64,000 bases of DNA. Source: Porticoccaceae bacterium (GTDB lineage Bacteria; Pseudomonadota; Gammaproteobacteria; Pseudomonadales; Porticoccaceae). Shown piece after piece: positions 23,516 to 31,835 of this stretch (within the stretch, counting starts at the first letter, position 1; each line of letters opens with the position of its first letter). Where the stretch lies: positions 305,127 to 369,126 of the forward strand of contig JAWKZV010000001.1 of assembly GCA_041395745.1 (NCBI GenBank), written 5' to 3'. The position numbers were made by a program, and so were the translations under genes. Under the pieces are notes generated by a model. It searched no databases. It saw nothing but the letters and a program-made list of their open reading frames with translations, and was not told where the DNA came from.

Positions 23516-28582
<5,067 letters not shown>

Positions 28583-28610
28583 AGTGATATCTCTCACGGT
28601 AGCGGCGTCC

Positions 28611-29927
28611 TTAGAATGTCAGTGTTGTGCCGGTGAGGCGTTGCAATTCGATGTGCTGCAGGTGGATAGCCTCGAAGGCGCTCAGCAGATCCTGTTGCGC
28701 CCCCAGCTTTTTGTGGAGGATGGCCGTCCACTGCTGATAATCCAGCCTGCCGCTCTCATAGGCCCGGGTGGCCTGTGCCTGAGCGTTGTTCAGGGCGGGG
28801 ATAATTCTTTCCCGCAGGGTTTCTATCACGTGTTGGCTGTGTTTGATTTCCTGTAGCAGGACGTAAAGCTGCGTATCCAGGCGGCGCTGGAGCACCTCGG
28901 ATTCGCTGGCATACTCAGCCTGTTTGGCCCGCAGGCTTCTGACTTTTCCGACACTGCTGCGGTCTTCCCCCAGGGGGACTGAAACGCCGGCCACCATGCC
29001 AAAATCATCGCTGGCCTCAAAACGGCGAATGCCCGCCGAAAACTGCCATTGCGGCCTGGCCTCGATTCGCGCCAGTTCTATTTCCGATTCCACAATACGC
29101 TGCTGTGTGGCCAGCAGGGCCAGCGCGGGGTTTTGCCTGAGTTGTTCGAATTGCTGTTCGACGTTGCCCAGCGCCGGAACGTTAAACAGCTCGCCCAGCA
29201 GGCGAAATTCATCGCGCTCGCCGCCCCATTGTGCGCTCAGCCGGTAGCGTGTTGAGCTCAGCATGTGTTGCAGGTCTTCAGTTTCCAGTTCCCGTTGGGC
29301 CAACTCCACTTCAGCCTGGAGGCGTTCAAATTCGGGGCTGTTGCCGGCTTCGATGCGCTTCCCAATGGCGGCGACGGTGTTGCGGGCCTGTTGTGCGGCT
29401 TGCTGTGCGAGTTTTATACGCTGTTCTTCGGCCAGTGCCTGAATAAACAGCCGGGCTGTCTCGGCGGCCAGATTAAGTGCTTCGACCTGCTGCTGGATAT
29501 CGACCTGGCTAGCGGAAGCCCGAGCCGCTTGAATACGGCTGTCGATGCGGGCACCTTGTGCTACCCAACTGATGGAGAGGGTGGACTGAGCGCTGCCAAA
29601 ATCGCTGTAGTCACCGCCGCCGGCGAAATCCTCGACCATGAAACCAACACTGGGGCGCTCACCCACGCCGACCTGTTCGATCAGACCCTGGTAGGCTTCG
29701 CGCCGGTGCGGAAAAACCCCAAGCTGAGGGTGTTGTTCCAGGGTCAGTTGAACCGCTTGATCCAGCGATAACACGGCGCCCTGTTCAGGTGTGCTCTGCG
29801 CATTGACCGATGAAGCTGAGAGACATGCCCCAGCGATGACCAGCGCGGGGAGGGCAGGCAGTAGCAATTGCCTTAAAAGCCGATTGGTAATCGGTGTTTT
29901 ATGCAAAACCATATGGCGTAGGTTCAT
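28611..29927 (-). CDS. czcC: TolC-family outer membrane factor, CzcC type
   Basis: Signal peptide, LSLDQAVQLTLEQHP, helical repeats, GVSVPL, AYESGRLDY; first gene of the C-B-A order. Confidence 0.88.
   Translation of the reverse strand: MNLRHMVLHKTPITNRLLRQLLLPALPALVIAGACLSASSVNAQSTPEQGAVLSLDQAVQLTLEQHPQLGVFPHRREAYQGLIEQVGVGERPSVGFMVEDFAGGGDYSDFGSAQSTLSISWVAQGARIDSRIQAARASASQVDIQQQVEALNLAAETARLFIQALAEEQRIKLAQQAAQQARNTVAAIGKRIEAGNSPEFERLQAEVELAQRELETEDLQHMLSSTRYRLSAQWGGERDEFRLLGELFNVPALGNVEQQFEQLRQNPALALLATQQRIVESEIELARIEARPQWQFSAGIRRFEASDDFGMVAGVSVPLGEDRSSVGKVRSLRAKQAEYASESEVLQRRLDTQLYVLLQEIKHSQHVIETLRERIIPALNNAQAQATRAYESGRLDYQQWTAILHKKLGAQQDLLSAFEAIHLQHIELQRLTGTTLTF
29875..29899. promoter_or_regulatory. 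Candidate second operator (CCGAT-N5-ATCGG) in the czcC 5' end
   Basis: AAAAGCCGATTGGTAATCGGTGTTT matches the reverse complement of 31431-31455 at 20/25 positions. Confidence 0.5.
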
Positions 29928-29939
29928 TCATCAGCCCTT

Positions 29940-29984
29940 TAGTTCAGAAGGAAATAGTTCAGTAGGAAATAGTTCAGTAGAAAA
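29940..29984. repeat. 3 x 15-bp tandem repeat in the M56-czcC intergenic region
   Basis: TAGTTCAGAAGGAAA / TAGTTCAGTAGGAAA / TAGTTCAGTAGAAAA. Confidence 0.92.
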
Positions 29985-30998
29985 TTAATGGGAAAAAAAC
30001 GCTTCGATCAGGTGGTGCAGGGTATCGACCCCCACCGCTGACAGGATCGCAGTCAACGCCATGATCGACAGACAGGAAATCCAGGGGAACGTTCGAAACG
30101 CTTGCGGTGTAACCAGTGCCCTGACGCGCAGATCGACATCGTCCGCAATGAAGTAGTTCACGACCAGCGGATTCCCATGGCCCGTCTGGCTGCCCGTGAA
30201 TACGCGCTGGATTCTGGCCGCCTTGACCAGGGTTTGGGCAATATCCAGTTTGCAGTGGGAGTCGCTGACCACGGCGTCGGCCAATTGCTCGGCCGCCATC
30301 GAGAATGCACGGTTCAGACGGCGGGCCACCGGTCTCGGGTAAAGGGACGCGCACAGGGCAAACAGCAATTTTTTCCGGATGTCCCTGTGTTTGATGTGGG
30401 CCCGCTCGTGATCGAGGATGATATCCAGCTCGGTTTCGGAAACCTGCTCGATCAGCCCGGTGGTAACGTAACATTTCGGATTCGAGAGGCCGGCGGCAAA
30501 TGCCGACGGGGTTTTCGATTCAAGCACGACAATATCCCGCCCGATTTCCCAGCGCCGGGCTTTTTCCCGGGTCCGGCTTCCGCTGCTTCCCATGGAGAGA
30601 TGCGTGAGTGAATCCAGGGCATGTAAATGGCGCGCGGCGTTCAGGCCCTTGCTGGTCAGCACATAAGCGATGCCCAGCATAAACATCAACAGGGTCGCGG
30701 CGTGCCAACTTTCCAGATAAAACACATACGGATGGTGCCAGTGGGCCAGTTGGCCCAGCCAGGAGGAATTTGCCCCATGAAACAGGGAGGGCAGGAAAAC
30801 CGACACGCAGATGATGCTGACCCCCCAGGGGGCAGCGACAAACAACCACAACAGCTTTTTTTGCGTGGCGGCAGAAAACTGCGCGATATGGCGAGTCATC
30901 AACGGCCACACTGATGCCAGCAGAAGCGTGGCCAGCAGCAGACCCATGAGTGCGATACTGAGCAGGTTGAGAATAATCGCGGGTTCATTAATCAACAT
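29985..30998 (-). CDS. M56 family zinc metalloprotease (BlaR1/MecR1-like, no beta-lactam sensor domain)
   Basis: Three N-terminal TM helices, SAFAAGLSNPKCYVTTGL, HERAH (HEXXH), EQLAD, fourth TM; 337 aa with no penicillin-binding domain. Start overlaps the repressor stop. Confidence 0.9.
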   Translation of the reverse strand: MLINEPAIILNLLSIALMGLLLATLLLASVWPLMTRHIAQFSAATQKKLLWLFVAAPWGVSIICVSVFLPSLFHGANSSWLGQLAHWHHPYVFYLESWHAATLLMFMLGIAYVLTSKGLNAARHLHALDSLTHLSMGSSGSRTREKARRWEIGRDIVVLESKTPSAFAAGLSNPKCYVTTGLIEQVSETELDIILDHERAHIKHRDIRKKLLFALCASLYPRPVARRLNRAFSMAAEQLADAVVSDSHCKLDIAQTLVKAARIQRVFTGSQTGHGNPLVVNYFIADDVDLRVRALVTPQAFRTFPWISCLSIMALTAILSAVGVDTLHHLIEAFFSH

Positions 30999-31386
30999 TA
31001 TTGGCGATTTCCTGGCCGCGTAGTTGACGCTGCTGCTGAATCATTTTTTCCAGTTGAGACAGTTTTTCGTCATCCAGTCCGGCTGAGACGGAGGAGAAGG
31101 CGGCAATCAGGCTGTCTTCATCTTCGTTGATGAAATCAACAGTGACTTCCTGAATCAGTTGGGCAATCAGTTCCTCTCTGCCGATCTTGGCGCGGTAATA
31201 GTAGGCGTGTCCCTGTTTGTGACGGGTCAGTAGCTCTTTTTTGAACAGCCTGTCCAGGGTGCTCTGAATGGTATTCAGGGTGCCTCCCCGGTGTTTGGTC
31301 AGCGCCCCGTGCACCTGCTTGGCATCGGCCTCCGGCGTTTCCCACAGGTATTGCAGAACCTGCTTTTCTAATTCACCCAGCATCAT
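30988..31386 (-). CDS. BlaI/MecI/CopY family winged-helix repressor
   Basis: LGELEKQVLQYLW, NTIQSTLDRLFKKELL, RHKQGHAYYY; no CopY-type C-terminal Cys motif. Confidence 0.92.
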   Translation of the reverse strand: MMLGELEKQVLQYLWETPEADAKQVHGALTKHRGGTLNTIQSTLDRLFKKELLTRHKQGHAYYYRAKIGREELIAQLIQEVTVDFINEDEDSLIAAFSSVSAGLDDEKLSQLEKMIQQQRQLRGQEIANNVD

Positions 31387-31418
31387 ATTGCGACTTTCCC
31401 AAGTGTCATGCGGGACTT

Positions 31419-31455
31419 ATACTAGCACACAAAAACCGATGAGCAATCGGTTTTG
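31419..31455 (-). promoter_or_regulatory. Putative sigma70 promoter and overlapping operator for the blaI-like operon
   Basis: Minus strand TTGCTC-N16-TAGTAT with TG extended -10; AAAACCGAT-GAGCA-ATCGGTTTT inverted repeat (31432-31454) covers the -35 and lies between the divergent genes. Confidence 0.6.
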
Positions 31456-31472: not shown

Positions 31473-31835
31473 ATGGGTATTGGCTGGTTGGTAACGAAAT
31501 ATTTAACGACAGCATTTGTCGTGGTGGTGGTATCCGAGGTGGCAAAACGCAGCGACAGGTTGGGCGCCCTGGTGGCGGCTTTACCCCTGGTCACGATTCT
31601 GGCGCTCATTTGGCTCCATGTCGAAACCGGGTCGGCGCCGAAGGTCTCCAACCACGCATGGTATACCTTCTGGTATGTGATCCCAACGTTACCGATGTTT
31701 CTGATTTTTCCGTCACTACTGCCGCGTCTGGGATTCTGGGGCTCCCTGCTTGCCAGCGCATTAATTACCATCACCTGTTTCTGGCTGTTCGCCCTGTTGG
31801 TCAAGCAATTTGGCATTGATCTGGACGTTCTATAA
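31473..31835 (+). CDS. DUF3147-like small membrane protein
   Basis: Four TM helices, VSEVAKRSDRLGALVAALPL, HAWYTFWYVIPTLPMFL; divergent from the repressor. Confidence 0.75.
   Translation: MGIGWLVTKYLTTAFVVVVVSEVAKRSDRLGALVAALPLVTILALIWLHVETGSAPKVSNHAWYTFWYVIPTLPMFLIFPSLLPRLGFWGSLLASALITITCFWLFALLVKQFGIDLDVL

Follow-up and report, generated by a model that had tools for sequence, protein, structure and literature searches.

The DNA analyzed here, called the window in the following, is a stretch of 64,000 nucleotides of a Porticoccaceae bacterium (GenBank assembly GCA_041395745.1, contig JAWKZV010000001.1, positions 305,127 to 369,126 of the forward strand), the genome of which has a size of 2.53 Mb and a G+C content of 55.5%. 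On its minus strand the window contains, between 22.6 and 31.4 kb, an operon of closely spaced genes, in which a blaI-like repressor gene is followed by the gene of an M56 protease, the genes czcC, czcB and czcA of a resistance-nodulation-division (RND) metal pump, a HupE/UreJ gene and two small genes. An inverted repeat with the core CCGAT-N5-ATCGG occurs twice, once upstream of the repressor gene and once inside czcC, and in both places it very probably serves the BlaI-type repressor of the same operon as a binding site. This layout of a promoter dyad and a czcC dyad is conserved, as judged from sequence, at 66 or more related loci of marine bacteria. Taken as a whole, the data are in our opinion best explained, with good though not full confidence, by two operators of a homodimeric BlaI-family repressor that is encoded between them, and by a control that would combine a block of the promoter, a roadblock inside the operon and an induction driven by the protease. 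The two sites and the repressor gene are located as follows.

31432..31454, no strand assigned: site 1, putative promoter operator; core dyad 31436-31450; operon (minus) strand AAAACCGATTGCTCATCGGTTTT
29876..29898, no strand assigned: site 2, putative intragenic operator; core dyad 29880-29894; operon (minus) strand AACACCGATTACCAATCGGCTTT
30988..31386, minus strand: BlaI-family repressor gene, 132 amino acids; Pfam Penicillinase_R with E = 2e-23 over residues 3-118

Both sequences are found where an earlier note on this DNA, made from the letters alone, had placed them, and on the plus strand they read AAAAACCGATGAGCAATCGGTTTTG (31431-31455) and AAAAGCCGATTGGTAATCGGTGTTT (29875-29899). The pattern CCGAT-N5-ATCGG (CCGATNNNNNATCGG) has exactly two matches in the window, whereas 100 shuffles that preserve the dinucleotides gave 0.05 matches on average and in no case two; with one mismatch allowed there are four matches in the window, which is not above chance. 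Genome-wide, the bare 5-N5-5 core is unexceptional with eight copies, since 131 of the 805 palindromes of this type occur as often or more often, and therefore the signal of the dyad is carried by its flanks and its position. When the genome was scanned, as the earlier note had proposed, with a 23-bp matrix built from the orthologous upstream sites (A/T flanks scored, spacer ignored), the two window sites ranked first and second, site 1 with 34.1 bits and site 2 with 23.7 bits, followed by a next best value of 19.9 bits. A chance origin of the two copies is ruled out by the shuffles and this ranking. Hairpins of the form AAAACCGGCC...GGCCGGTTTT account for the hits at 19.9 bits, and no further member of the regulon was found in the genome. 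The description of the second copy as oppositely oriented carries little weight; the two copies are identical at 18 of 23 positions in one orientation and at 19 of 23 in the other, and orientation means little for a dyad.

A scan of species-representative genomes for the pattern of the recognition helix confirmed 326 relatives of the repressor, of which the best 80 loci were kept, 78 of them new (L051-L128), from Haliea, Alteromonas, Pseudoalteromonas, Colwellia, Shewanella, Paraglaciecola, Thalassolituus, Kangiella and others. An equivalent of site 1 is present in 77 of the 78 new loci, at -52 to -100 and mostly at -64 to -72 from the repressor gene. In all 13 Porticoccaceae loci recovered with a homologue (37-84% protein identity) the dyad stands 50-70 bp ahead of the start codon, and in other gammaproteobacterial families it is found in front of homologues with 35-64% identity. 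The full consensus of 36 aligned sites is AAAACCGAY-N5-RTCGGTTTT, and the recognition helix, LNT[IV]QSTL[DE]RL, is invariant among 17 homologues. In 151 Porticoccaceae genomes, which were scanned for the strict pattern AACCGAY-N5-RTCGGTT, eight of 12 hits are located at repressor loci. A strict hit occurs in five of the 13 genomes that bear the gene versus four of the 138 that do not, where one and the same unrelated site is responsible in three genomes; since related genomes are not independent samples, this observed co-occurrence of motif and gene supports the assignment but is not a formal test of it. As a further observation, the conserved sequence AACCGAC-AACCC-GTCGGTT occurs in three genomes of the Porticoccaceae genus g14 (G042:C16:11913, G082:C4:5981, G053:C10:89654), and these genomes have no detectable repressor homologue. 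That the sites are real operators, but of a different and unlinked DNA-binding protein, is hardly conceivable. It is true that the binding by the BlaI-type protein is deduced from sequence; however, across families and next to different cargo genes the motif stays with the repressor gene, the recognition helix shows no variation wherever the motif is preserved, and the best hits of the whole genome are the two sites beside the repressor gene, which is the only PF03965 gene found in a search of the 2.53-Mb genome.

At site 1 the dyad coincides with a promoter that was predicted for the repressor gene.

31419..31446, minus strand: predicted repressor promoter; -35 TTGCTC (31441-31446) in the dyad spacer, 16 nt, extended -10 TGcTAGTAT with the hexamer TAGTAT at 31419-31424

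The earlier note had claimed that site 1 overlaps the -35 region, and this agrees with the orthologues, in which the promoter is conserved and the -35 is situated within the dyad spacer. An anchored profile of 61 non-redundant loci has TTGCCt in the spacer of site 1 and TGnCAnnAT 7-8 nt past the site; the site-1 spacer reads TTGCCT or TTGACA on the strand of the repressor gene, with an extended -10 of the form TGnCAnnAT or TGnTAGTAT at the same 7-8 nt beyond. A generic promoter scan of the window did not list this promoter, the -35 of which matches only three of six positions. The promoter that the scan did list, ATGACA-16-TATGAT, overlaps the start codon and was treated as a chance match. Because TTGCTC sits in the dyad spacer and the extended -10 follows, a bound dimer would cover the -35 hexamer and the promoter spacer. 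Repressor at site 1 can thus be assumed to exclude RNA polymerase and to cause autoregulation of the blaI-like gene, the M56 protease gene, czcCBA and the genes further on. The proposal that the dyad is the cognate operator and mediates autoregulation is supported in this respect, as all of its parts that could be tested in silico held.

Site 2 lies 1556 bp downstream of site 1 inside the presumed transcription unit, at the beginning of the first pump gene.

28611..29927, minus strand: czcC-type outer-membrane factor gene; Pfam OEP, and a weak match to NCBIfam IhpA (divalent metal exporter subunit)

It starts 29 nt after the ATG at 29927, which agrees with the former estimate of about 30-50 nt inside the gene, and it encodes residues 10-18 (KTPITNRL) of the pre-protein, which by the N-terminal translation fall in the n-region of the signal peptide. 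A site 2 is found at the boundary between regulator and cargo in 66 of 67 czcC-bearing loci of the larger set, and also in most Porticoccaceae loci that are long enough to show this boundary. Phylogenetic footprints as the earlier note had in mind are thus positive both upstream of the blaI-like genes (77/78) and at czcC (66/67). The site is located inside the czcC open reading frame (ORF) in 66 of 67 cases, always in one frame that encodes K-K-P-I/T-x-x-R-F, and for 56 of the 67 sites the distance from the first in-frame ATG to the start of the site is 32 nt (45 cases) or 29 nt (11 cases). Since only one czcC frame is used and many loci have no alternative start codon downstream, site 2 is truly intragenic and part of the signal-peptide n-region. 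The codons are directly informative about the level at which it is conserved: Pro is encoded by CCG in 67 of 67 sites (background in the same loci 25%), Arg by CGG in 66 of 66 (13%) and Phe by TTT in 63 of 63 (71%). The synonymous positions, the variation of which in orthologues had been named as an argument against the operator, are hence conserved. In L083 and L111 the DNA motif has decayed and the peptide is changed as well. As synonymous positions are frozen and DNA and peptide decay jointly in these two loci, the constraint acts on the DNA. A conservation of KKPIxxRF at the peptide level is ruled out for the same two reasons, and further because some copies stand in non-coding sequence or in gene remnants (L040, L041, L048, L049 and the first of the copies in L102).

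Moreover, site 2 tracks the head of the cargo and not the gene upstream of it. L073 (Marisediminitalea aggregata, NZ_FQWD01000001.1) has no M56 protease gene (blaR) and keeps the repressor and both operators, with site 2 directly after blaI, 451 nt from the blaI start and 32 nt into czcC; this cassette represents a natural protease-less variant. In L040, L041, L048 and L049 the site stands ahead of hupE-type or other cargo. L040 and L041 (G087, G037) have a hupE/UreJ gene and an orf179 homologue past site 2 instead of czcCBA, and a remnant ORF of 44-48 codons from the 5' end of czcC has retained the ATG and, at a spacing of 35 nt, the operator, which suggests that the cargo was replaced downstream of the operator. 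The distance between both sites ranges from 1444 to 1556 bp and is 515 bp where blaR is absent, so that it follows the length of the intervening genes. The value of the window is the longest seen, due to a 32-nt insertion relative to three close relatives: between the blaR stop codon and the czcC ATG (29940-29985) a 15-nt unit, TAGTTCAGTAGGAAA on the plus strand, is repeated 3.1 times. The number of operator copies also varies. L102 (Thalassomonas sp. RHCl1) has two sites upstream and two downstream, and L039 (G073) has two tandem in-frame copies of site 2, 69 bp apart, in an unusually long czcC N-terminus. These distances bear on the idea that site 2 is an auxiliary operator which loops the DNA in order to strengthen repression at site 1, as lac O2 inside lacZ, and has little roadblock activity of its own. 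The layout of one operator on a promoter and a second one in the downstream coding region, as well as the common conservation of both sites, would be in agreement with it. However, the separation merely reflects gene length (1444-1556 bp versus 515 bp without blaR), extra tandem copies exist at either end in some loci (L039, L102), proteins of the BlaI family are known as dimers, and those of CopY are reported to occupy their two operators independently of each other (bioRxiv 10.64898/2026.09.30.755846). Looping is consequently regarded as improbable.

For the second control point the earlier note had left the choice between an internal promoter, a roadblock and a loop. The existence of such a point is supported, whereas the internal promoter is the option that finds least support in the sequence. 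On neither side of site 2 did anchored profiles of 48 non-redundant regions show a conserved -35 or -10, although weak or unusual promoters may escape such profiles, and consensus scans likewise revealed nothing conserved. A separate czcCBA promoter with site 2 as its operator, where the repressor would occlude the promoter or block early elongation instead of stopping read-through, is therefore rather unlikely, even if it is the most serious of the competing explanations. TTG is indeed found in sense orientation in the spacers of some site-2 copies; L039 has TAGGAT 19 nt behind its second tandem copy; in L040 and L041 about 150 nt separate the site from the next gene, and a TTTGTG...-type sequence like that of the site-1 promoter comes after the site; and pumps usually need a far higher expression than regulators. 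On the other hand, TTG occupies spacer columns 9-11 in 15 of 22 site-1 but only two of 14 site-2 copies of the first set, and in the many loci without a start codon past the site a transcript that begins there could not encode czcC. Because of the lack of a conserved promoter at site 2 and the short gap of about 15-57 nt between the blaR stop codon and the czcC ATG, we infer a roadblock as the preferred mechanism for this site.

The operon would then function in the following way. An autoregulated promoter must fire at a basal level in order to maintain repressor and protease. Repressor at site 2, about 1.5 kb downstream of site 1, would stop those polymerases that escape from this promoter, and as an outcome the repressor and protease genes would be expressed basally, while the pump stays off. 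The A-tract and the CGG of the dyad at the same time supply the Lys and the Arg of the signal-peptide n-region. For induction it can be assumed, by analogy to BlaR1/BlaI and PetP/PetR, that the sensor-less M56 protease inactivates the repressor, presumably in response to metal, and thereby frees both sites at once. A wider reading of site 2 is put forward here only tentatively: it may be a dual-coded insulator in the czcC n-region, held by selection at 29-32 nt from the start, and thus part of a general design which allows a sensor-regulator pair to be expressed while the co-transcribed cargo is fully off, and which could be used in at least 300 loci of the subfamily. If so, and the narrow range of distances between ATG and site would suit this speculative geometry, the stalled polymerase would already have passed the blaR stop codon, so that the sensor genes are expressed normally, and it would still cover the initiation region of czcC, so that no ribosome loads to push the polymerase through.

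Several points weigh against two operators of one repressor with a roadblock at the second. The loci share ancestry, so that the counts of loci overstate their independence. Site 2 of the window is the weaker copy (23.7 versus 34.1 bits), and the sequence data do not discriminate between a roadblock, looping and an unrecognised internal promoter. Furthermore, the dyad region can fold as a hairpin with an energy of -10 to -12 kcal/mol (z = -2.3 to -3.3) and has a T run behind it, and the flanks extend the palindrome by at least four perfect pairs, specific for each locus, in 18 of 50 site-1 and eight of 42 site-2 regions, where about one is expected in each set. Extended palindromes with 4 to 14 or more complementary flanking bases are seen at site 1 in L060, L063, L064, L069, L072 and L090, and at site 2, even within the czcC coding region, in L085, L086, L098, L101, L115 and L121. 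These extensions could be the result of a template-switch correction of quasi-palindromes, of mirrored divergent promoters in the case of site 1, or of a role in secondary structure.

Folding and flank extensions are also the main arguments for dyads that act as hairpins free of protein, either as a leaky terminator or attenuator between regulator and pump genes or as a stem that stabilises or processes the mRNA, and a terminator scan indeed lists site 2. This listing is, however, only on the plus strand, which is antisense to the operon, with seven pairs of which three are G-C, and site 2 has a core stem of 5 bp and not the G+C-rich stem with a U run on the transcribed strand of an intrinsic terminator. 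The core CCGA is invariant instead of co-varying, the G-C pair at columns 7/17 is broken in seven of 36 sites, and no RNA-type covariation of the core was found beyond what the composition of the columns gives. The arms pair in 90.1% of cells compared to 88.7% after shuffling; the pairing of the arms is thus explained by each half matching one consensus, as would be expected of a sequence-specific dyad. Site 1 is located upstream of the predicted transcription start of the repressor gene and therefore outside of that mRNA. No Rfam family matches the sites, and the motif adjoins a BlaI-type gene both in the two top matrix hits of the genome and in eight of 12 strict hits in the Porticoccaceae. 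The flank extensions are restricted to a minority of loci, and a template-switch mutation would account for them as well. Structure without protein is thus very improbable as the function of the dyads, and the reading as operators of the BlaI-type repressor is retained.

On the other side of site 1 a gene for a small membrane protein is transcribed divergently from the operon.

31473..31835, plus strand: divergent membrane-protein gene, 120 amino acids; NCBIfam NF006751 (PRK09272 group) with E = 5e-57

Its ATG is situated 18 nt from site 1. The earlier note had named this gene DUF3147, a label which Pfam did not support, as it gave no hit at E values up to 1; the gene matches the NCBIfam group given above. 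The control of this gene by site 1, which had been considered possible, is plausible: 31 of 78 loci have a divergent homologue whose start is 7-39 nt away from site 1, most often 12 nt. A candidate divergent promoter, TTCCCA-16-TATACT, is located at 31396-31423, and transcription from it would begin at the edge of site 1. Since any transcript of the gene must either start at the operator or cross it, co-repression of the divergent gene via site 1 is likely, and the same dimer that acts on the repressor promoter would probably block it. Homologues of the small membrane protein also occur elsewhere in the cassettes of L042, L044 and L046, inside or after the pump genes, and the protein looks like a true member of the system.

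The other genes of the operon that were annotated are the protease gene and the two remaining pump genes.

29985..30998, minus strand: M56/M48 membrane metalloprotease, BlaR1-like and sensor-less, 337 amino acids; HERAH (HExxH) at residues 197-201
27347..28597, minus strand: czcB; Pfam HlyD_3
24201..27335, minus strand: czcA; Pfam ACR_tran, CusA/CzcA family TIGR00914 with 1428 bits

The repressor gene and the protease gene lie on the same strand and have 11 nt in common. Intergenic gaps of at most 57 nt and overlaps along the operon suggest that it is one transcription unit. In Pfam and NCBIfam the protease matches only Peptidase_M48 and Peptidase_M56, and no penicillin-binding sensor domain was found in its 337 amino acids. 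The 3' end of its gene (29985-30010) encodes a His-rich tail, VD-x-LHH-x-IE-x-FF-x-H followed by the stop codon, which is conserved in nearly all loci and may be relevant to metal sensing. The repressor has no cysteine among its 132 amino acids and hence lacks the C-terminal CxC...CxC metal site of the CopY branch; consistently, the CopY_TcrY model gives 53 bits compared to a cut-off of 122. Its closest solved structures are 2G9W and 1SD4/1XSD, and further relatives in the Protein Data Bank are 1P6R/2P7C and 2K4B. BlaI is cleaved between Asn101 and Phe102 in the dimerisation region. Phe97 of the repressor aligns with the Phe of LVLNFAK in Staphylococcus aureus BlaI and is conserved in at least 90% of 17 homologues.

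In the literature searched, neither a connection of BlaI-type regulators with czc genes or metal RND pumps nor a description of the dyad was found; a preprint on PvmSR of P. aeruginosa gives no operator, and a paper on BlaI of M. tuberculosis has the motif only in a figure. The putative operators provide a precise and testable cis-element for an RND heavy-metal pump of uncharacterised control, which would be governed by a repressor and a membrane protease and not by a two-component system. The dyad would define the DNA specificity of a large BlaI subfamily with the 326 relatives confirmed, and this includes culturable Alteromonas, Pseudoalteromonas, Colwellia and Shewanella. The intragenic copy appears to be a clean natural case of overlapping codes, with a putative repressor site within a signal peptide.

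Among the known systems, PetR/PetP of Synechocystis sp. PCC 6803 is the most similar one. There, a Cys-free BlaI-like regulator is co-transcribed with a sensor-less M56 protease, and a copper signal leads to degradation of the regulator (Garcia-Canas et al.; bioRxiv 10.1101/2020.07.31.226407; PMC7896320). The conserved core of the PetR operator is the inverted repeat GAC-N5-GTC (bioRxiv 10.1101/2020.07.31.226407). The operon described here likewise combines the genes of a Cys-free BlaI-like protein and a sensor-less M56 protease, and its dyad has the same 5-bp spacer with the consensus GAY-N5-RTC; both copies of the window read GAT-N5-ATC, and several copies in relatives read GAC-N5-GTC in both arms, e.g., L011_s2 and L041_s2. 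Because of the same spacing and the many copies that contain GAC-N5-GTC, the dyad can be regarded, by the geometry of the motif, as an extended form related to the PetR box rather than an unrelated element, which links the BlaI subfamily to the PetR operator geometry. In contrast to the system found here, PetR controls the genes of plastocyanin and cytochrome c6 at unlinked promoters and can also activate. The repressor described here would regulate the operon in which it is encoded together with an RND metal pump; the half-site AAAACCGAY is longer, and the second site is intragenic.

BlaI/BlaR1 and MecI/MecR1 of Staphylococcus and Bacillus and CopY/CopR of Firmicutes share with the system described here the fold and family of the repressor, its presumed binding to a dyad as a dimer and the number of two operators per system. 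The partner protease likewise has HExxH, and in the alignment the Phe next to which BlaI is cleaved is conserved. The operators of BlaI, MecI and CopY are TACA/TGTA boxes, with RNYKACANNTGTMRNY as the refined CopY site (PMC7253601). The dyad, with its consensus CCGAY/RTCGG, differs from these boxes as the earlier note had stated, but due to its PetR geometry it is not wholly unlike the known sites of the BlaI family. Further differences are that the two operators of BlaI, MecI and CopY are both located in the promoter region, that the protease here has no penicillin-binding sensor, unlike BlaR1 and MecR1, and that the repressor has no CxC metal site, unlike CopY. In Pseudomonas and Cupriavidus, czcCBA is subject to two-component control of the CzcRS type (e.g., PMC10393844, PMC10127602). 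The kind of heavy-metal RND pump is the same, whereas activation by a phosphorelay there stands against a repressor and a protease here.

With respect to its position, site 2 resembles intragenic or downstream operators, as are lac O2 in lacZ, GalR OI in galE, the PurR site in purB and the cre roadblocks of CcpA. Like these, it lies in the coding sequence past the promoter, so that one stretch would serve both the protein code and the recognition by a repressor. In contrast to them, it stands at a nearly fixed 29 or 32 nt from the start of the third gene and about 1.5 kb from the promoter, and it separates the regulator from the cargo genes.

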